A stretch of 64,000 bases of DNA from positions 33,715-97,714 of IMG/VR virus record IMGVR_UViG_3300029267_002727; one strand, 5' to 3'. This document shows, one piece after another, positions 7,837 to 52,063 of the stretch. Within the stretch, counting starts at the first letter, position 1. Every line of letters begins with the position of its first letter. This DNA is from a virus. Position numbers and translations under genes: made by a program. The notes below the pieces were generated by a model that did not search any database, was not told the origin of the DNA, and was given only the letters and a program-made list of their open reading frames with translations.

Positions 7837-7864
7837 ATTTTAGCGCAAAAACCATAGCTGTCAA
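7837..7864 (-). promoter_or_regulatory. Sigma70-type promoter for the leftward operon
   Basis: TTGACA-16bp-TAAAAT on the minus strand. Confidence 0.6.
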
Positions 7865-7868
7865 GGGG

Positions 7869-8090
7869 TCAATTCAAGGGTACGATCTGCTCCTCCCGCA
7901 ATTCGAGGTCGTGCCGCTGCTCGTTGCAACTGGAACAGCGAATGATCCCCGCCCGCCCCGGAGAGATGTTGTCGTACGACTGGTCCATCAGGTGGCCCGT
8001 CTCATCGAAACGCGTGACAGCCCAGCCGATCACCTGCCGCTTCAGATATACACCACAAAGAGACCCGCAATGAGGACAAGCAGGAAGCAT
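7869..8090 (-). CDS. Small zinc-ribbon protein
   Basis: CPHC...CSSC; ATG after GGAGG. Confidence 0.65.
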   Translation of the reverse strand: MLPACPHCGSLCGVYLKRQVIGWAVTRFDETGHLMDQSYDNISPGRAGIIRCSSCNEQRHDLELREEQIVPLN

Positions 8091-8186: not shown

Positions 8187-8215
8187 ATGATACCACGGGA
8201 GAGGCAGGCAGTCAA
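8187..8215 (-). promoter_or_regulatory. Sigma70-type leftward promoter at the strand switch
   Basis: TTGACT-17bp-TATCAT with extended -10 TG. Confidence 0.6.
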
Positions 8216-8332
8216 GAGGCCAATTGGCATGCCCAACCTTAATGCGCGCGCCAGTCAGAATAGGTAGTAGTAATGACTGTAGATGAAGGTGGGGTCGCAT
8301 CTACAACAAAATCATATAAGGAGGCAGGGGCA

Positions 8333-8551
8333 ATGTCAATCGTAGACCTGGATCAAGACAAGCGCGCAGCATTCGCAATGTACTTTTACGGCCATCGCGC
8401 GAGCCTGAATAAGGCCCTTGCAATGGCGGGGCTCTCTTATCTCGATCAAGAGGCCGCTTTGTTCGTTCGTCCTAATATGCCCATCAATGCCGAGATTCTC
8501 GACAATGGGGATATTATCATTCGTAGGCGCTGGCAACGACCAGTGCGCTAG
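8333..8551 (+). CDS. Hypothetical early protein
   Basis: ATG after AAGGAGG. Confidence 0.65.
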   Translation: MSIVDLDQDKRAAFAMYFYGHRASLNKALAMAGLSYLDQEAALFVRPNMPINAEILDNGDIIIRRRWQRPVR

Positions 8552-8566
8552 TATAAGGAGAATAAG

Positions 8567-8704
8567 ATGCACAGCTATGGCGACGATCACAACCCGATGC
8601 TCCGTATCCTGCTCATTGCACCGTTCGCGGCAGCAGTCGTCATGTTGGGGATGTATCTGATCCCCACCATCAGCACCATTATGGCGACACTCACCTCGTT
8701 CTAG
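8567..8704 (+). CDS. Small membrane protein, 45 aa (below the ORF-track cutoff)
   Basis: MHSYGDDHNPMLRILLIAPFAAAVVMLGMYLIP... after AAGGAG. Confidence 0.6.
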   Translation: MHSYGDDHNPMLRILLIAPFAAAVVMLGMYLIPTISTIMATLTSF

Positions 8705-8711
8705 TCTCTAT

Positions 8712-8799
8712 CACCCATCCTTGTGGCAGCCTTCGGGCATTTGACTTGGATGGGTGCAGAGCATAGCACATACAACTGTGTATGTGCTGCGTTCTGCAC
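8712..8799 (+). ncRNA. Overlapping tandem-hairpin element 1
   Basis: CACCCATCC/GGATGGGTG stem (inner GCC-UUCG-GGC) overlapping a 21-bp stem at 8754-8799. Confidence 0.65.
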
Positions 8800-8821
8800 A
8801 ATATCATATAGGAGGAAGATC

Positions 8822-9007
8822 ATGAAGACAACAGTATTGGTATTCAAGAACGATGCAGGGGACATCATCATCATTCGTAGCCGCTTCTCCTTGAGCGAGG
8901 CCGATCCCGCCAAGCTCTCGCCGTTCGAGCGCTGTGTGGCAGCAAAGGCCAGGGAGAAGGGGCTGCACGTAGAGATTGGGGAGCTCACAATCCCCAGCCC
9001 CGCATAA
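8822..9007 (+). CDS. Hypothetical early protein
   Basis: ATG after AGGAGG. Confidence 0.65.
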   Translation: MKTTVLVFKNDAGDIIIIRSRFSLSEADPAKLSPFERCVAAKAREKGLHVEIGELTIPSPA

Positions 9008-9015
9008 CAATATAC

Positions 9016-9106
9016 ACCTGGCCCTATCCAGCATAGGGCCCAGGTCAGAATTGTCTATATGCAAATGTAGACAGTTCTGACCTGGGAGCGCTCCGTTGTG
9101 GAGCGC
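9016..9106 (+). ncRNA. Overlapping tandem-hairpin element 2
   Basis: Stem A 9016-9045, 22-bp stem B 9039-9086 with GCAA loop, stem C 9088-9106. Confidence 0.75.
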
Positions 9107-9146
9107 CTATATATGCTCTCTCTTCAGAGGGCAGGAGGTTATTAGC

Positions 9147-9455
9147 ATGAACGCCATCAAGTTTGACGGGCTGCTCTTTCTCAGTATCGACAAGCTGGCA
9201 GCTTACATCGGCCGTCGATATGGTTATCTGGCAGGCGTGCCAGAGGATCACCCTCAGATCGCTGTTGTGTCTGCTCTGCACGGGCTCAGCGAAGAATACT
9301 TCTTTGATCTCGAGGGCATAGCTGTGCAGAGGCCAAGGCACGACTGGCCAGAAACCCCGCAATGGGCCAAGGATATGGCAGAGAGCTACGGCTACCCACA
9401 ACCCTCTTATGAGGAGGACGACATAGCCGATGGGCAATGCACTATGTGGGACTAA
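9147..9455 (+). CDS. Hypothetical acidic early protein
   Basis: ATG after AGGAGG. Confidence 0.65.
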   Translation: MNAIKFDGLLFLSIDKLAAYIGRRYGYLAGVPEDHPQIAVVSALHGLSEEYFFDLEGIAVQRPRHDWPETPQWAKDMAESYGYPQPSYEEDDIADGQCTMWD

Positions 9456-9467
9456 CAACTAAATAGA

Positions 9468-9560
9468 GGGCCCTGTACTAGCAGGGCCCCAAACCAGAAT
9501 TGCCTATATGCAAATGTAGACAATTCTGGTTTGGGATGCGGGGGTAATAGTGCCCCCACA
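9468..9560 (+). ncRNA. Overlapping tandem-hairpin element 3 (homolog of element 2)
   Basis: Stem A 9468-9489; stem B 9488-9535 shares its core with element 2 and has compensatory changes; stem C about 9540-9557. Confidence 0.75.
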
Positions 9561-9564
9561 TGTT

Positions 9565-9710
9565 AATGGGCCATTGCTGAGAGCCCCGCGAGAAGCCAAG
9601 TCAGGCTACATACCTTGGGCTTGCCCTCCGTATAAGTAGCTGCCGTGCGACCAACACGGTACTGGCGTAGCAGGAGACGTCCTGCGCGGGCTTCTCAGCA
9701 GTGGCCCATT
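9565..9710 (+). ncRNA. Candidate structured ncRNA closed by a 26-position stem
   Basis: 9565-9590 pairs with 9685-9710 (25 of 26 positions, including G-U); branched internal stems. Confidence 0.65.
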
Positions 9711-9733
9711 TTTCTATAGGAGGTGTATAGGAA

Positions 9734-9874
9734 GTGCGCAATGGAAAGGCCGCAGTATATATCGTGCTTGCGGCGAGCCTGGTTTGCGCAGGGCTCGCCT
9801 CGCCCCTGATCCTGGAGGCGCTGGAGTTCATCGCCCAAGTCCTATGGTACATGTTCCTGGGGCCTATTCAGTAG
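9734..9874 (+). CDS. Small membrane protein, 46 aa (below the ORF-track cutoff)
   Basis: GTG start after AGGAGG; MRNGKAAVYIVLAASLVCAGLASPLILEALEFIAQVLWYMFLGPIQ. Confidence 0.55.
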   Translation: MRNGKAAVYIVLAASLVCAGLASPLILEALEFIAQVLWYMFLGPIQ

Positions 9875-9886
9875 AGGAGGAATCCG

Positions 9887-10093
9887 ATGATCGAAAACGT
9901 GTACGGCAACCCCTGGATCCACATGATCAATCAGGCCATCCTGGCCAACCCGGCGCCCCTCGTGGCGCCCCCGTCCCACACCAAGGGCGTCTGCCCGCCT
10001 TACTCTGGGCCCTCCAAGAGGACCCGGGCCAAGCGTGCGGCCAAGCGTCACCCGCGCCGCGGCACAGGGAACTGCGGTAGGCAGCGCTCATGA
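9887..10093 (+). CDS. Small basic hypothetical protein
   Basis: AGGAGG RBS; Arg/Lys-rich C-terminus. Confidence 0.55.
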   Translation: MIENVYGNPWIHMINQAILANPAPLVAPPSHTKGVCPPYSGPSKRTRAKRAAKRHPRRGTGNCGRQRS

Positions 10094-10275
10094 TCACCCT
10101 CGAGTATCAGTTCAAGTCGGATGCCGAGAGAGACTTTCTGGCCAGCTACATCTTCAACCAGGCCCTCGGCATGAAGGAGGTGGCAAAAGAGGCCGTCCTC
10201 CCAGGTGAGCGCGAGAAGCTAGAGAACAAGGCGCAGGCCCTGCGCCGGCTCGCGGTCGCGATCGACAACACATAG
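10090..10275 (+). CDS. Hypothetical protein
   Basis: ATGA-coupled ORF. Confidence 0.6.
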   Translation: MITLEYQFKSDAERDFLASYIFNQALGMKEVAKEAVLPGEREKLENKAQALRRLAVAIDNT

Positions 10276-10327
10276 GGGTTCCAGCTTGGGCGTCGTATCA
10301 AAACATCTTACACAGCACAAAAGAATA

Positions 10328-10433
10328 GCCTGCTGGCGGGCATTGTACACCAGCGCCTAACTGGTTGAAATAGACCAGACGAATCTGTAACCCGTCTCGT
10401 GGCGGGTGTGGCCTCCCAGCGGTTTGGGCGGCC
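10328..10433 (+). ncRNA. Candidate structured RNA (pseudoknot plus successive hairpins)
   Basis: GCCT/GGGC with GCTGG/CCAGC pseudoknot; CTGGTT/GACCAG, ACCCGTC/GGCGGGT and GGCC..GGCC stems. Confidence 0.4.
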
Positions 10434-10438
10434 GAAAC

Positions 10439-10545
10439 GCGTAAGCTCGGCGGGGGCTTACGCAAAAACCTTAAAGCCTCTATAAGGTTTTTGCGTGTGC
10501 CCCGGCTACGGCTCGAGGCGCCAATCTTCCGTGGAGGTAGGTTCG
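10439..10545 (+). ncRNA. Overlapping tandem-hairpin element 4 with conserved leader
   Basis: Stem A 10439-10463, stem B 10460-10496, then leader shared with element 5. Confidence 0.7.
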
Positions 10546-10860
10546 ATGGGTATGTACTGCGACGTTTATGGGGTCGAGGTCAAGATGGCCGGCCTGCTCG
10601 CCGTTGCCGCTGACGAAGTCGTGGGTGGCGATGACTGCGGGGTCGTTGTCATCTCACGCGAAGACGCCATGGAGATCCTGTCCGTGATGCGTGGCGAACT
10701 GCTGAACGGCTGGGCCAACAAGGCCAACGTTTACAGTGGGGACGCCCCGCTTTCGGGTGTTCAGGATATCCTTCACTTCGCCGGTGATGTGGTCGCATTC
10801 AGGCAGCTCCTGCTATGGGTAGCCTATGAGAAAGGAGAAGAGGAGCTAGTGTTCGCCTGA
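10546..10860 (+). CDS. Hypothetical protein
   Basis: ATG after GGAGGT; the upstream GTG in the ORF track lies in the repeat leader. Confidence 0.65.
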   Translation: MGMYCDVYGVEVKMAGLLAVAADEVVGGDDCGVVVISREDAMEILSVMRGELLNGWANKANVYSGDAPLSGVQDILHFAGDVVAFRQLLLWVAYEKGEEELVFA

Positions 10861-10870
10861 CAATCAAATA

Positions 10871-10979
10871 GCGCAAGTTCCAGCCGGGGCTTGCGCAGAG
10901 CTCACTCTCACAAGAGGGTGATCTCTGCGTGTGCCCCGGCTACGGCTCGTGGCACCAATCTTCCGTGGAGGTAAGTTCA
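10871..10979 (+). ncRNA. Overlapping tandem-hairpin element 5 with conserved leader
   Basis: Stem A 10871-10896, stem B 10893-10930, leader nearly identical to 10492-10545. Confidence 0.7.
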
Positions 10980-11684
10980 GTGTCTCAGTCCAAGTTTTCT
11001 CTCGCGTTGGTTGCGCTCTTGAGCGTGGCCCTCGGGGCCGTCCTGGCCCTGCTGATCGCTCGCCCCGCAGCCTCCGTGGCTGCCCCCCAGACCTCTGGCC
11101 CCGCGGCCTCCGTGGCTGCCCCCCAGGCCTCTGGCCTGTTGTCCCAGTCCGAGATGGAATCGCTGGCTGCCAATCGCGTGGAGTTCGTGCGTGAAGATGG
11201 CGCCCGCTGCACCATTCTCTCCAACGGCGAGCTCGACTGCGAGTGCTGCCAGTGCCAGCAGGAGGCCGCCCCGTGCATCAATACCACACCTGTGGTTACC
11301 GTGTCCGCACCCGTCACGTTCACGAAGGTCGTCACCGTACAACTCCCGTGCAAGGAAGTTGCTACCGAGGACGAAGAGGCGTTCCTGATCGACGATCCCC
11401 CGGATCGCCCCGATGATCCCGGTGATGAGCCTGACACGCCCGATGGGCCCGATACGCCTGATGACCCCGGCGATCCCGACACGCCCGATGATCCCGGTGA
11501 TGAGCCCGACACGCCTGACAAGCCCGACAGGCCAGCCGATGATGGCGACAAGGAGGGCAACGGGAACAATGGCGTGGGGAACGGCTATGACCCGCAGCCC
11601 AAGGGTGACCCCAAACCCAACGACACCGGGGACGATATGGGCCCCGGTAACCCAGACAACAAGGGCGGCAAGAAGGACAAGTAA
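10980..11684 (+). CDS. Secreted/membrane-anchored protein with Cys cluster and Pro-Asp-rich repeats
   Basis: Signal/TM segment, tandem PAASVAAPQxSG, CECCQC, PDxPDDPG repeats, GNNGVGNGYDPQP motif. Confidence 0.75.
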   Translation: MSQSKFSLALVALLSVALGAVLALLIARPAASVAAPQTSGPAASVAAPQASGLLSQSEMESLAANRVEFVREDGARCTILSNGELDCECCQCQQEAAPCINTTPVVTVSAPVTFTKVVTVQLPCKEVATEDEEAFLIDDPPDRPDDPGDEPDTPDGPDTPDDPGDPDTPDDPGDEPDTPDKPDRPADDGDKEGNGNNGVGNGYDPQPKGDPKPNDTGDDMGPGNPDNKGGKKDK

Positions 11685-11695
11685 AGGAAAGGGCA

Positions 11696-11926
11696 ATGAA
11701 ATACAGGACGGCAGCAGGCAGGGCGTTCAAGATCCCGGCCGGCTCCCACGTGCACGTGGAGGTCAGGCCAGATGAAATCATCGTCACCAGGGGGAACGGT
11801 GGCGTCGCAAACGAACTCCTGGAGGCCGCAGTCAAGAACGGCATCCAGTACACACCGCAGGGAGACCTGCGCCTTGTTTCGGACACCCTCAGAAGGACCG
11901 GGGGCGTCTTTCATCTCAAAGGATAG
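11696..11926 (+). CDS. Hypothetical protein
   Basis: ORF in the early operon. Confidence 0.55.
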   Translation: MKYRTAAGRAFKIPAGSHVHVEVRPDEIIVTRGNGGVANELLEAAVKNGIQYTPQGDLRLVSDTLRRTGGVFHLKG

Positions 11927-11934
11927 GAGGCAAG

Positions 11935-12264
11935 ATGGACATCACGAGCATAACGCAAGAGATCGCCGAGGTCGGCCCCGAGACCACTGATTATCGGAAC
12001 GTCCGCCAGCGCGCGATAGACGCTGGCGCTACCGAGCTCTGCATCATCATCCAGTACAGTAATAACCTCGGTGCTGGTGTGATGCGGTGCCTCGTGGATG
12101 GGATCGAGAAGAACGTGCCCGCCCCCATGTGGAAGGCCGTCGAATGGCTGGACGGGTACGTCGTGCGCGACACCCCCGACGAAGGGGGGATGGTGCGGTA
12201 CGTCGTGGGCCCCGTGGACTTCGAGGACGCGCGGCGCCGCTACAAGGAGGAGTACCGTGCCTAG
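11935..12264 (+). CDS. Hypothetical protein
   Basis: AGGAGG RBS. Confidence 0.65.
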   Translation: MDITSITQEIAEVGPETTDYRNVRQRAIDAGATELCIIIQYSNNLGAGVMRCLVDGIEKNVPAPMWKAVEWLDGYVVRDTPDEGGMVRYVVGPVDFEDARRRYKEEYRA

Positions 12265-12463
12265 CTGCTGGTATGACGCGATCCGCGTGGTAGTGCGCTA
12301 CATCTTTGATGGATACGTGACCGAGATTCACGACACCGATCGCATCGGGGCCAACGAACACATCGAAGACGCCATTAACCGATTCGGCCTCGAGAAGATC
12401 GAAGCAGACGTTTACCGGGACGCATCGGGCGGCCTGGTCGTTATCACACAGGAGGCAAGTTAA
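12257..12463 (+). CDS. Hypothetical protein
   Basis: GTG start after AGGAG. Confidence 0.55.
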   Translation: MPSCWYDAIRVVVRYIFDGYVTEIHDTDRIGANEHIEDAINRFGLEKIEADVYRDASGGLVVITQEAS

Positions 12464-12464
12464 G

Positions 12465-13802
12465 ATGGCTATCAGCAGGAAAAAGATGATCGAGACGGCC
12501 GTGCAAGCGGCCAAGGACATGGGGTGGGAATCGGTCAAATTCGAGGATGACGGCAAGGACGTCATGATCGTTCTCAATGCCCCGGGCGCGGCCGAGCAGA
12601 TGACCGAGCCATGCCGGCTACCCACGCTGGTCCGGGCCGTGCGCAACGTTGGGCCCGCAGCGGACTACCCGGCCATCGAAGAGTACCCGGTGCGCTACGA
12701 CGAGAGCATGCCCTACGAAGGCCACGAGGACCCGCGCGAGCAGTACGTCCAGCCAGTAACCAAGTGGGACGAGGTTTACTCGCCCCCAGAGGATCGGCCG
12801 GGCGATTACGTAGAAGAGGAGGCATTTCCTCCCGAACACTACGGGCCCGAGAAGGACCCCTTCACCGTGGACGCGGCCGTAGAGATCTCCGAGGCCGAGA
12901 GCCACGCAGATGAACCGACCGAGCTCGAGAAACCCGAGCCGGATGATGATCCGTTCGCCGGCCTGGAAGTGCCGGCCGAGATCGTGGAGGTGGCGACCGA
13001 GCCGCTCCCCGAGAAGGAGGAGGCAAAAGTGGCGAAGAAACGTGCGCGTCGTGCGAGTGAGTCCCGTGACGATCTGATCGCTCGCTGCAAGGCCCTGGGG
13101 ATCACGGGCTACTCTCGCCTGAACGTCAAGTCTCTGAGGGCCCTGATCCGCAACGTGGAGCGAAACCGCGAAGAGATCGGCCGGCTCGCCGCGGCGCTAG
13201 ATGCCGCCGAGCAGCTACCGGGCCCAATCGAGGACGTCAGTGGTCACGGCATCGAGCCGCCCACCATCAAGGTGAGCCCCAAGATGGCGGCGACCGAGGG
13301 TGACGTGTTTGTGCAGGACCGCGGTGGGATCGCCCACCCAGAACAGATCTTCCCCCAGGAGGAAACCACAGTGAACCTCTCTGCTGAAACCGTCGAGAAG
13401 CTGGGCCTGCGCGACGAGATGATCGACCTGGGTGAGGGCCGCTGCGCCATTGCCCGCCACGGCAACGATACCAAGGTGTTCAGCCGCAAGATCAGCGCCA
13501 GCCTGAAGACTCAGATGGAGGGGAACGGCTGGAAGTTCTTCAACGTGACCGGCGAGCGAGCGCGGGAACTGTTGCGCAACAAGCGCAAGGCCGCAGGCAT
13601 GGGCACCGCGCCCGTCGCCATCTCCCACAAGCGCGGTGAGGACTGCGTGGAGCGTCTGAACGGCCGGGTGTACGCAAAGCCTGGCTACATGTTCCGCCTC
13701 AGCCTCAAATCCGACCCGTCCGTAACCAACGAGTTCGCCACCATCAACGAGGCCGTATGGCGCAAGCTCTGGAATATCGCGGTGGTGTACGTGGGCGTGT
13801 AG
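12465..13802 (+). CDS. Multidomain protein with acidic linker and Rho-N/HeH-like motif
   Basis: SRDDLIARCKALGITGYSRLNVKSLRALI resembles the Rho N-terminal helix-extension-helix motif. Confidence 0.65.
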   Translation: MAISRKKMIETAVQAAKDMGWESVKFEDDGKDVMIVLNAPGAAEQMTEPCRLPTLVRAVRNVGPAADYPAIEEYPVRYDESMPYEGHEDPREQYVQPVTKWDEVYSPPEDRPGDYVEEEAFPPEHYGPEKDPFTVDAAVEISEAESHADEPTELEKPEPDDDPFAGLEVPAEIVEVATEPLPEKEEAKVAKKRARRASESRDDLIARCKALGITGYSRLNVKSLRALIRNVERNREEIGRLAAALDAAEQLPGPIEDVSGHGIEPPTIKVSPKMAATEGDVFVQDRGGIAHPEQIFPQEETTVNLSAETVEKLGLRDEMIDLGEGRCAIARHGNDTKVFSRKISASLKTQMEGNGWKFFNVTGERARELLRNKRKAAGMGTAPVAISHKRGEDCVERLNGRVYAKPGYMFRLSLKSDPSVTNEFATINEAVWRKLWNIAVVYVGV

Positions 13803-13812
13803 ACCGTTCTCT

Positions 13813-13836
13813 GGGGGAGCCCCTGGTGGCTCCCCC
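13813..13836 (+). terminator. GC-rich hairpin after the early operon (no U-tract)
   Basis: GGGGGAGCC-6nt-GGCTCCCCC. Confidence 0.55.
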
Positions 13837-13868
13837 CACCTACTCAGGGGGCGAATGTGAATTGGCCC

Positions 13869-13898
13869 CTTGACAGGTGTTTAGTTGCATGGTAGAAT
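13869..13898 (+). promoter_or_regulatory. Sigma70 promoter with putative operator
   Basis: TTGACA-17-TAGAAT with extended -10 TG; CTTGAC-aggt-GTTTAG. Confidence 0.8.
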
Positions 13899-13920
13899 GA
13901 GAACCAGATAAGGAGGCCCT

Positions 13921-14469
13921 ATGAACGATCAAGACCTAGCACGGCTAGTACTGGCAGGATACCCGATCTGGGTCGAGGTGACGGACGCACGGCTAGAAGT
14001 CTGCCCCCCGGACGGCCCTTCCCCCTCCCCATTTCCGTACGCCGAGTGGCTCGAGTACGCGGACGAGAACACCACCGAGGCCCTGGACATCTACGTAGAG
14101 TACAACGGCGAAATGTACTGGGCCGGCGAGCTCCTGAGCGGCATAGGGATCGGGCCCCTCCTCCGTAGTGAGGACGCCATGCGGGAGTATGCGTATCAGG
14201 GCGCGCGCGACCCGTTCCGACAGTGGGACGGGTTCTGTACAGAATGCTACAAGTTTTGTAGGAGGCGGCGCGTGATGCGGTCGATCGGTGGCGGGGAGTG
14301 GCAGTGCCCTTACTGTGACGCTATCGAGTATCACCCAGGGGACCTAGAGAGCCCGACCCTGACCACGAACAAGCAGAGAGCTCGGCGAATGGCCGAGCTC
14401 CTATGGGGTCTAGGGTTGCAGGAGCAAGCCCTGGAGTACGATCCAAGATATTCCCCGGAGGTAAACTGA
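13921..14469 (+). CDS. Hypothetical zinc-finger protein
   Basis: CTEC...CPYC; AAGGAGG RBS. Confidence 0.7.
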   Translation: MNDQDLARLVLAGYPIWVEVTDARLEVCPPDGPSPSPFPYAEWLEYADENTTEALDIYVEYNGEMYWAGELLSGIGIGPLLRSEDAMREYAYQGARDPFRQWDGFCTECYKFCRRRRVMRSIGGGEWQCPYCDAIEYHPGDLESPTLTTNKQRARRMAELLWGLGLQEQALEYDPRYSPEVN

Positions 14470-50078: not shown

Positions 50079-51830
50079 ATGGGAATCCCTTGCAGGCCCT
50101 ATCAACAAGAGGCTGTTGACGCACTGTGGGAAGCACTGAAGAAGGACGACGTGTGGGCGGTTGGGTGTGCGATGGCTACCGGCCTGGGTAAGACCCGAGT
50201 AGGCCTCGTGTTTATCGACCAGCACCTGGATGGCGGCCGCGCTCTGTGGCTGGCCCACCGCAACAAGCTGGTGGAGCAGCCCCTGGAGCGGCTCCGAGAA
50301 CTATGGCCAGATGCCAACATCGGTGTAGTCAGGGCGCGCAAGAACGACGTCGATGCAGACATCATTTTGGGTAGCGTGGCCACGCTCACCCGCGAGAACC
50401 GGATGCAGGAGCTCTTGGCCGCGGGCAAGATCGACATCATCGTGACGGATGAATGCCATCACGGCCCCAGCGAGTCATACGAGCGCATCTACAAGTGGGT
50501 CAGGGAGCACAACCCAAACGTGGTGCACGTGGGCCTCACTGCGACCCCGTGGAGGCGCGACGGTAAGTGGGCAAAGGGCGAGTGGACGTTTCAGGAGCTC
50601 CCCCGAGGAGCCCAGAAAAATATCCGCTGGGGAATCCGGGAGGGGTGGCTAGTTCCCCCTGTGGGAACTGAGGTCGAAACGGAGGTCTATAAGCAAGGTA
50701 AGTTTGCCGCCGACCTGTCAAGGGTAAGGGTCACCGCAGGCGACTTCAACACCGGCGAGCTCGCAGACGTTCTCGATGCTGCTCAGTGGCATCTGCTTGT
50801 CGCTAAGTATTACCTCGAGCACTTTGTCACGCCGTACGATGAAGAGAAAGAGGTTGTAGGCAGCGGCGAGGGCAAGCAGGCCATCGCCTTCACCGTCGAT
50901 GTTGCGTCCTCGAAGAAGCTGTGCGAGGAGCTCAAGTCCAGGGGCGTGAAGGCTGCCCATATCGACGGCACGATGTCGGACAAAGATCGTAAGCCTATCG
51001 AGCGCGGGTTCACATCGGGCAAGATACAGGTACTGTGCAACTGCGCGGTCTACACGGAGGGGGCAGACTTCCCCTCCGCTGAGGTTGTACTGATGGCCAG
51101 GCCCACCAGGTCGCCCGGCTTGTTCACACAGATCGTAGGTCGCGGCTTGCGCCCCTATCCCGGTAAGGACCACTGTGATGTAGTCCTGTTCGCCGGTCAC
51201 GGCGCAGACCTGATGACCCTCTTCGACCTTGGCAAGAGCAAGAAGGTCAAGAAGGCGGAGAAGGCAGCCAAGGAACTTGGGATCCCAGGCGTGAGCGCCG
51301 GCATCAATGTGTTCGATGAGCATACGGTCACCGGCGCTGGCACGAAGGCTACACTGGTGTCCCTGTTCAACGGGAGCAAGCACGCCTGGTTCCGCGATGG
51401 CGCCGTGTTCTCCCTGGGCCTGGGCGAAACTAAGGATGAAAAGAGCGGAAACCTGTACCAGAGGACACTCGTCATCTTGCCGCCTAATGGGGATGACTGT
51501 TGGCACCTGATGGCCTTGGGCCGGAGGGTGTGGTACGGCCAGGACCAGAAGCGACACGGCGGCCAGTGGCGCGTGTACGAGCTCGATGCAGGAATGGATA
51601 TCGAGGAGATGATGGATATGGCGGCTGGCGTCATCGAACGACGGGCCTGCAATACCCTCTCCAAGAAGCGCAAGCGGTGGAGGAAGGATCCTGCATCCAA
51701 GGGCCAGCTAGGAACACTTCATAGGATGGGCGTTACGCCGCCCAAGGGCCTCGGAAAGGGTGATGCGTCCAGGCTGATATCTCACTACATTGCGATGAAT
51801 GTGCTGAGGAAGGAGGGGTACGTATCATGA
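50079..51830 (+). CDS. Superfamily 2 DEAD/DEAH-box helicase
   Basis: RPYQ, ATGLGKT, DECHH, GLTATP, TEGAD, QIVGRGLR. Confidence 0.93.
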   Translation: MGIPCRPYQQEAVDALWEALKKDDVWAVGCAMATGLGKTRVGLVFIDQHLDGGRALWLAHRNKLVEQPLERLRELWPDANIGVVRARKNDVDADIILGSVATLTRENRMQELLAAGKIDIIVTDECHHGPSESYERIYKWVREHNPNVVHVGLTATPWRRDGKWAKGEWTFQELPRGAQKNIRWGIREGWLVPPVGTEVETEVYKQGKFAADLSRVRVTAGDFNTGELADVLDAAQWHLLVAKYYLEHFVTPYDEEKEVVGSGEGKQAIAFTVDVASSKKLCEELKSRGVKAAHIDGTMSDKDRKPIERGFTSGKIQVLCNCAVYTEGADFPSAEVVLMARPTRSPGLFTQIVGRGLRPYPGKDHCDVVLFAGHGADLMTLFDLGKSKKVKKAEKAAKELGIPGVSAGINVFDEHTVTGAGTKATLVSLFNGSKHAWFRDGAVFSLGLGETKDEKSGNLYQRTLVILPPNGDDCWHLMALGRRVWYGQDQKRHGGQWRVYELDAGMDIEEMMDMAAGVIERRACNTLSKKRKRWRKDPASKGQLGTLHRMGVTPPKGLGKGDASRLISHYIAMNVLRKEGYVS

Positions 51831-52063
51831 GTCTCACAGATCGTGAGATGGATATCTTGGAGATGGCGGCGCGGGGATGGACGAACTGCGGCATAGCCGC
51901 CTACTATGACATCAGCAGGCAAACAGTAAAGAACCACATGTCATCAGTGATGGCGAAGCTGTGCGTCACATCCAGAACAGGGGCGGTGGTTGTGGCCTTC
52001 CAGCTTGGCTTGATAGATCTGTTTCACGTGCGCGTAGAACGGACATACGACCATGAAGATTAA
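51827..52063 (+). CDS. Stand-alone LuxR/NarL-type HTH regulator
   Basis: LTDREMDIL..G.TN..IA..ISRQTVKNHMSSVMAKL.V.SRT.AV. Confidence 0.88.
   Translation: MSLTDREMDILEMAARGWTNCGIAAYYDISRQTVKNHMSSVMAKLCVTSRTGAVVVAFQLGLIDLFHVRVERTYDHED

Follow-up and report, generated by a model that had tools for sequence, protein, structure and literature searches.

The gene map of the phage filed in IMG/VR as IMGVR_UViG_3300029267_002727 (record length 97.7 kb) is very densely packed, with about eight plus-strand spacers longer than 100 nt, and five of these lie within the same 2.3 kb, which raises the question of what occupies them and whether it acts as DNA or as RNA. Our analysis concerns a window of 64,000 nucleotides (bases 33715-97714 of the record; positions are those of the window unless marked as genome coordinates), for which a preliminary description, made by reading the sequence, had noted tandem hairpins in the five spacers. 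All five of these elements, here called E1 to E5, are inside plus-strand spacers of 117-278 nt between co-directional genes led by Shine-Dalgarno (SD) sites. Together with two adjoining folds, a branched RNA of 146 nt and a leader of about 165 nt, they are most likely, on the evidence of modeled folds and their conservation, structured segments of a polycistronic plus-strand mRNA.

Five strongly folded spacers in three sequence families

When folded as RNA, each spacer is more stable than its dinucleotide shuffles (z of -5.6, -9.5, -8.8, -3.8 and -6.0 for E1 to E5), with none of 200 shuffles reaching the stability of the native sequence in any of the five cases, and the previously described hairpins are all present where they had been placed. 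When the whole 97.7-kb genome is folded in sliding segments of 60 nt, the mean is -15.4 kcal/mol and the standard deviation 5.0 kcal/mol, and the B stems, which are the longest, score -35.2, -39.3, -32.1, -36.3 and -49.3 kcal/mol (E1 to E5). E5 is the strongest 60-nt hairpin of the genome, and the five B stems are among its top ten or so.

The elements had been taken to share one architecture. There are hairpins in all five, in an order that runs from the stop codon through 8-14 nt to stem A, stem B, one or more small hairpins and the SD site, but the elements belong to three sequence families (E1; E2 and E3, or family I; E4 and E5, or family II), and by their sequences the likeness among them is in part paralogy. 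Their components are as follows.

8713..8799, plus strand: E1; stem A 8713-8720/8748-8755, extendable to 8757, with a small C(UUCG)G hairpin enclosed
8754-8774/8779-8799, plus strand: E1 stem B; 21 positions (18 Watson-Crick, 2 G.U, 1 A.C), loop ACUG
9016..9133, plus strand: E2; stem A core 9020-9027/9033-9040, extendable to 9016-9045
9039-9060/9065-9086, plus strand: E2 stem B; 22 bp with a GCAA tetraloop
9088-9094/9100-9106, plus strand: E2 stem C
9114-9121/9126-9133, plus strand: E2 stem D, a fourth hairpin, which abuts the SD site
9468..9561, plus strand: E3, paralogue of E2; stem A 9468-9475/9482-9489
9488-9509/9514-9535, plus strand: E3 stem B; 22 positions, one of them C.A, GCAA loop
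9536-9546/9551-9561, plus strand: E3 stem C
10439..10545, plus strand: E4; transient stem A 10439-10446/10456-10463
10450-10476/10480-10506, plus strand: arms of the long interrupted hairpin of E4, with outward extension to about 10438-10520
10523-10543, plus strand: small SD-sequestering hairpin of E4
10871..10979, plus strand: E5, paralogue of E4; transient stem A 10871-10881/10886-10896
10882-10909/10914-10941, plus strand: arms of the long interrupted hairpin of E5, with extension to about 10872-10951

Family I is laid out as a GC-rich stem A of 8-13 bp, an abutting 22-bp stem B with a GCAA tetraloop, and then stem C. The sequence exchange noticed earlier between E2 and E3 is confirmed as three consecutive pairs, GGU/ACC becoming AAC/GUU. 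Comparison of E4 with E5 likewise upholds a U-A to C-G swap in stem A and inner B stems that are unrelated in sequence yet paired. The 53-nt 3' leader of E5 (10926-10978), which is 94% identical to 10492-10544 of E4 up to the start codon, includes the small hairpin that sequesters the SD site.

In E4 and E5 the minimum free energy (MFE) structure is a single interrupted hairpin of about 33 bp, which takes in the 3' arm of stem A and part of what had been called stem C. Stem A can form in these two elements, as had been proposed, but as a transient alternative that is 6.3-6.4 kcal/mol less stable than the long hairpin; in co-transcriptional prefix folding, it appears first and is displaced once the 3' arm appears. 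The duplex measures 19-22 bp in E1 to E3 and about 33 bp in E4 and E5, where arms of 21-28 nt are extended outward, and it is perfect in stem B of E2, broken by one 1x1 mismatch in E1 and in E3, and interrupted by small symmetric internal loops in E4 and E5. A search of the genome with covariance models of families I and II brings up no additional copies.

Selection for base pairing in the plus-strand RNA

Several features distinguish the two strands. The MFE of the plus strand is below that of the minus strand in every one of the five spacers, by 1.7 to 10.2 kcal/mol (for E1, -51.7 vs. -41.7 kcal/mol). A strand-neutral stem finder returns 11 G.T but 2 A.C positions in the B stems, the former being G.U pairs on the plus strand, and the GCAA (GNRA) and C(UUCG)G tetraloops are legible as such only on that strand. 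These results, together with the covariation reported below, bear out the earlier claims that non-canonical positions are mostly G-U on the plus strand and that the fold is strand-specific.

A scan of metagenomes with g4, one of the nine genes around the elements (g1 to g9, listed below), yielded one related phage, present as two JGI metagenome contigs (L007 and L008) that are 77-95% identical to the window in a mosaic fashion. After g2, the relative has a family I element made of an E2-type A and B followed by a hairpin like stem B of E1. A paralogue of g4 (L008 815-1081 and L007 20-229) occupies the g3 slot between two family I elements, and the orthologue of E2 has an E3-type stem A. Next in order are a truncated g4, an orthologue of E3, the 146-nt RNA and g5 to g7, followed by one family II element and then a different gene in place of g8-E5-g9-g10. 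The relative's own g4 encodes 69 aa, having been shortened by loss of its last ~106 nt, and g4-type genes are flanked by family I elements in both phages. The elements lie at the edges of the slots whose gene content differs between this phage and its relative.

The covariance analysis foreseen in the preliminary description supports the fold. In the five copies of family I, 98.1% of the cells of stem B are paired although 7/21 pairs have changed on both sides, and none of 500 column shuffles reaches the covariation observed for the whole three-helix structure; when the 3' partners are slid as a control, pairing is found in 32-49% of cells, as compared with 89.7% observed. The cores of the elements are also conserved above the neighboring genes: A and B of E3 are identical to those of the relative at 68/68 positions and the E4 core at 68/70, whereas the identity of flanking genes is 70% for g5, 74% for g6, 59% for g7, 81% for g1 and 78% for g2. 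Hairpin D of E2 and the SD hairpin of E4 and E5 are retained in the relative despite sequence change. The overlap between stems A and B had been presented as part of the common design, and it is present in the elements of the window; at the E2 position of the relative, it shrinks to about 2 nt, and stem A types are exchanged between copies, so the overlap is not a conserved feature.

Because of this covariation, the bias toward G.U, the conservation of the cores, and the compensatory changes in the adjoining RNAs (see below), we conclude that base pairing in the plus-strand RNA is under selection, and this evidence fits neither a sequence-specific protein site nor a symmetric DNA palindrome.

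Searches for additional relatives were negative. Blastn against the phage GenBank collection returned none, and neither did exact motifs from both families in IMG/VR, where a degenerate stem-B pattern gave two matches, both by chance, in AT-rich coding DNA. In IMG/VR, protein searches located no related locus, whether the query was the 445-aa gene, the probable terminase, the g8 alignment or the g8 homologue P0003; the g8 alignment and a DNA motif matched none of the GTDB genomes and therefore provided no clue to the host.

Adjoining structured RNAs

Two further structured RNAs lie among the elements.

9565..9710, plus strand: branched 146-nt RNA in the spacer of E3, with a closing stem of 24-26 bp and a run of U after it
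10276..10438, plus strand: structured leader of ~165 nt upstream of E4, with several small hairpins

Compared with L007, the 146-nt RNA has three compensatory changes and several single changes compatible with wobble pairing, and none of its pairs is broken; its closing stem is 92-96% conserved and its interior 79%. By analogy, this closing stem would be a further long duplex of the kind cut by RNase III, and the 146-nt RNA could be freed from the message as a small RNA. The leader at 10276-10438 also differs from L007 by three compensatory changes without a broken pair (e.g., GCUGG/CCAGC to GCCGG/CCGGC).

Structure was also noted at two other sites. Conservation in 8252-8330 exceeds that of genes, and because the 6-bp hairpin at 8252-8257/8274-8279 changes in the relative only to G.U pairs on the plus strand, the sequence suggests that a plus-strand transcript starts upstream of 8252. 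On the minus strand at genome 27279-27538 (window -6435 to -6176), there is a second structured RNA of ~160 nt with a 20-bp closing stem, and since it is followed by a textbook hairpin-plus-U terminator, canonical terminators appear to be read by the host.

Promoters, terminators and known RNA families

Matches to sigma-70 promoters were scored with a cut-off of 9/12 and also at relaxed stringency. At 9/12 or better, there is no plus-strand match in any of the five spacers, the best being 8/12 in the E1 spacer, with a poor -10 hexamer; the best upstream of g1 is 7/12. The plus-strand block as a whole (8333-13802) contains no recognizable sigma-70 promoter, even at relaxed stringency, and near-consensus promoters on the minus strand lie at 7864, 8215 and 8339, the last of which overlaps the start codon of g1. 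The block had been labeled the first early operon; its small genes are indeed co-directional, but the label is an assumption, no promoter for the block being recognizable, and both its early status and its status as a single transcript are assumed here. At the end of the block (window 13803-13920) is a 9-bp G/C hairpin at 13812-13840 without a U tract, and directly after it, on the plus strand at 13870-13898, is a near-consensus extended -10 sigma-70 promoter that serves the next operon.

No U tract follows stem A, B or C in any of the five elements, and canonical hairpin-plus-U terminators are present in other spacers of the same genome, on which grounds we reject canonical intrinsic terminators as an identity for the elements. 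Rfam 15 gave no match in the whole window at gathering thresholds, so the elements do not coincide with a family already described there; at E-values up to 5 in 8200-14000, the only matches were to miRNAs and snoRNAs at chance level. The covariance models of families I and II (R1 and R2) do not match the SPO1 host-takeover region (FJ230960 1-14000), and by sequence the elements are not members of the SPO1 family.

Proposed punctuation of a message by host RNase III

The function that we consider most likely for the elements, at about an even chance, is post-transcriptional punctuation by host RNase III, in which the RNA would be cut and capped at the long duplexes. The reasoning is that every element contains a duplex of 19-33 bp, which is the class of RNase III substrates: a double-stranded region above about 22 nt has been used as the minimum target size, and RNAs of T7, T3 and lambda are listed as targets (PMC5371410). 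The model requires the host enzyme because the phage encodes no RNase III, a Pfam profile search having found no such gene.

According to this model, host RNase III would cut the long duplex, i.e., stem B in E1 to E3 and the interrupted hairpin of about 33 bp in E4 and E5. After the cut, the GC-rich hairpin A would cap the upstream RNA at its 3' end, 8-14 nt beyond the stop codon; the downstream message would carry at its 5' end one or two small hairpins (C, D or the SD hairpin), and each small gene would thereby gain a stability and a translation rate of its own. The 146-nt RNA would be released as a separate molecule. In E4 and E5, stem A would form first during transcription and be displaced by the long hairpin, and it may re-form after cleavage. 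A processing cassette of this sort had been put forward in the preliminary description, and the RNase III-class duplex and the flanking small hairpins agree with it; its proposed switch, in which cleavage within the overlap frees stem A, is not conserved across copies, and the two-state competition on which such a switch depends is real in E4 and E5 only.

Several considerations weigh against this model. It leans on the host for an enzyme that the phage lacks. Stem B of E2, being a near-perfect duplex, lacks the internal loop that T7 sites typically have. Both cleavage and plus-strand transcription of the block are predictions from sequence and folding. The covariation comes from about three to four independent sequences, the comparison being with one related phage on two short contigs, and the conservation of the E3 and E4 cores could be due in part to gene conversion or a recent recombination event, and not to purifying selection.

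The best-known systems of this type are the RNase III sites of T7 and T3 early mRNA (R0.3, R0.5, R1, R1.1 and R1.3), reportedly described by Dunn and Studier. The T7 sites are hairpins of about two helical turns, without a terminator U tract, between co-directional small genes near the genome start; each has a characteristic asymmetric internal loop and is cut once, and the hairpin that remains at the 3' end is considered to stabilize the upstream message. Our elements resemble them in lying in the spacers of co-directional genes, in having a duplex of 20 bp or more without a U tract, and in maintaining their pairing on the mRNA strand. They differ in that there is no sequence similarity, in the extra hairpins that flank each element, in the near-perfect 22-bp stem B with a GNRA loop in E2 and E3 where T7 has its asymmetric loop, and in that cleavage is here a prediction. 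In the early mRNA of the Bacillus phages SP82 and SPO1, sites for Bs-RNase III are said to have been reported by Panganiban and Whiteley in 1983; there, a repeated family of intercistronic hairpins, which can refold after cutting, lies between host-takeover genes with strong SD sites. Repetition between cistrons, strong SD sites and, as a prediction for our elements, refolding after cutting are points of likeness, whereas the missing model match in the SPO1 host-takeover region and a very different base composition (55-60% GC here) set the two apart.

PeSLs (promoter-early stem-loops) of T4-type phages are repeated intergenic cassettes with a GC-rich stem-loop that flank ORFans in a plastic early region, and are defined by a consensus sigma-70 promoter together with a terminator stem-loop (PMC2839356, PMC4122927). 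As with PeSLs, close relatives differ by gene replacements whose joints fall at the cassettes; unlike PeSLs, the five spacers contain no promoter, and their stems are much longer and covary as RNA. PeSL-type cassettes are thus rejected as an identity for the elements. By analogy, the T7/T3 and SP82/SPO1 sites would be the closest counterparts in function and PeSLs the closest in evolutionary behavior (PMC2839356), since the elements delimit the genes replaced between this phage and its relative.

Alternatives to cleavage

If the hairpins were left uncut, they could still act passively, as barriers to 3'-to-5' exonucleases, as uncouplers of translation, or as SD masks that tune the next gene. 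We regard this as unlikely, although it draws on the same evidence of RNA-level selection as RNase III processing does: stem A begins 8-14 nt past each stop codon, hairpin D of E2 abuts the SD site and the small hairpin of E4 and E5 sequesters it, both of these being kept in the relative. Exonuclease barriers and SD masks, however, need only 6-12 bp, which leaves a duplex of 19-33 bp unexplained, and at that length cleavage by RNase III is expected by default (PMC5371410). Less probable again is punctuation of transcription, with the elements acting as attenuators, terminators or promoter-terminator cassettes for a polymerase other than the unmodified host sigma-70 holoenzyme, so that each small gene would be its own unit in a PeSL-like or N4-like manner. 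What speaks for it is the absence of a sigma-70 promoter for the block at 8333-13802 while near-consensus ones flank it (7864, 8215 and 8339 on the minus strand; 13870 on the plus strand), and the position of the elements, which, like PeSLs (PMC2839356), border slots whose genes vary from one relative to another. But the elements lack the U tracts of this genome's real terminators, the three families have no common sequence motif for a polymerase to read, and the better hairpin is on the non-template strand. Pfam profiles (Sigma70_r2, Sigma70_r4_2 and the T7-type RNA_pol) identify no sigma factor or T7-type RNA polymerase gene in the phage, the RNA_pol negative being weak in that the profile matched none of the control genomes either; and a PDB sequence search, Pfam and an ESM look-up detected no RNA polymerase motif in the tape-measure protein. 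In phage N4, the virion-RNA-polymerase promoters are conserved in sequence and form, on the template strand, a stem of 5-7 bp with a loop of 3 nt; they share with our elements a setting in an early region without host promoters. The single-stranded-DNA hairpin promoters suggested in the preliminary description are disfavored, since our elements have stems of 19-22 bp and loops of 4 nt, fold better on the non-template strand, and belong to families without a common sequence. A special form of this idea, that a non-canonical and possibly virion-delivered polymerase reads the block at 8333-13802 and treats the hairpins as structure-specific stop and start punctuation, making each ORFan gene a separate unit in a structure-read promoter-terminator system that would differ from that of N4, is in our view very improbable.

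The elements might instead be binding sites for a phage or host RNA-binding protein, either a processive antiterminator of the nut or put type or a translational repressor acting at an operator, an explanation that we consider improbable. A GNRA tetraloop is kept on the long stem in four of the five family I copies while its closing pair changes, and the element cores are conserved well above coding sequence, as a protein site might be; yet the tetraloop G is lost in the remaining copy, three unrelated families cannot serve one protein, and between E4 and E5 the inner B stems differ completely. An operator for a single protein is rejected on the ground that the sequences are unrelated but still paired. 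The put RNAs of HK022 are also tandem hairpins, in that each is a two-hairpin RNA, but there are two per genome and they follow immediately after PL and PR. With no promoter upstream, five sites in three unrelated sequence families and no Rfam match, the put-like antiterminator that had been offered as an alternative is disfavored. Very unlikely, finally, is a purely DNA-level phenomenon, with the palindromes serving as recombination hot spots or representing selfish REP- or MITE-like elements that have no role as RNA. The mosaic joints between the phage and its relative do fall at the elements, and hairpin modules have been reshuffled, as in the relative's first element with its E2-type A and B and E1-B-like hairpin. 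Such palindromes would not account for the 11:2 asymmetry of G.T over A.C, the strand-specific tetraloops, the compensatory changes in adjoining structured RNAs that are not palindromic, or the confinement of all copies to one 2.3-kb stretch.

The gene block and the phage

The record carries a 144-nt terminal repeat, which suggests a circular assembly. Minus-strand structural and glycan genes extend up to 7757, a small minus-strand Zn-finger gene is at 7869-8090, and the long run of plus-strand genes starts at 8333. The genes separated by the elements are listed here.

8333-8551, plus strand: g1, small gene
8567-8704, plus strand: g2, small gene
8822-9007, plus strand: g3, small gene
9147-9455, plus strand: g4, small gene
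9734-9874, plus strand: g5, small gene
9887-10093, plus strand: g6, small gene
10090-10275, plus strand: g7
10546-10860, plus strand: g8
10980-11684, plus strand: g9

Each of these nine genes, all of them small, has a GGAGG-type SD site, and none has a significant match in Pfam or PHROG, that of g7 to DUF6381 being below threshold (E 0.005). The g8 product belongs to an uncharacterized family of 94-131 aa, for which 1.8 billion proteins yielded 22 cluster representatives at E-values up to 1e-3 and which matches nothing in Pfam or PHROG; its N-terminal Met is invariant (consensus MGMYC), and W and D positions are conserved. The protein encoded by g9 begins with a hydrophobic, signal-like segment, and inside the gene (11400-11548) a 9-nt periodic repeat, present in seven copies that overlap, encodes a tract rich in Pro and Asp.

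Elsewhere in the genome, a 78-aa gene after the helicase (window 51824-51961) gives a weak, below-cut-off match to a Sigma70_r4_2-like helix-turn-helix (E 5.6e-4). A DEDDh exonuclease domain (Pfam RNase_T, 3.4e-19; PDB 2p1j, 6e-8) is clearly recognizable at the N terminus of the 2634-aa protein in the tape-measure slot, which is encoded outside the window (genome 7348-15252, minus strand, L005). No tRNA or tmRNA was found in the search for them.

Implications

The elements are most likely a known kind of phage signal, of the RNase III type, in a new phage, and not a new principle. What is mildly unusual about them is the two-state fold of E4 and E5 and their setting in a gene block without a recognizable promoter. 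If RNase III does cut them, this phage, which is uncultured, high in GC and composed almost entirely of ORFans, would add an independent lineage to those in which a multi-gene message is divided and its parts receive hairpin caps, in support of the idea that tailed phages use this device generally and that it is not a peculiarity of T7 or SPO1. As well-defined, conserved non-coding landmarks, the elements can aid the annotation of such phages, and they are candidate insulator parts for genes in synthetic operons. They also mark the sites at which gene cassettes are swapped, which helps to explain how ORFan-rich regions evolve.

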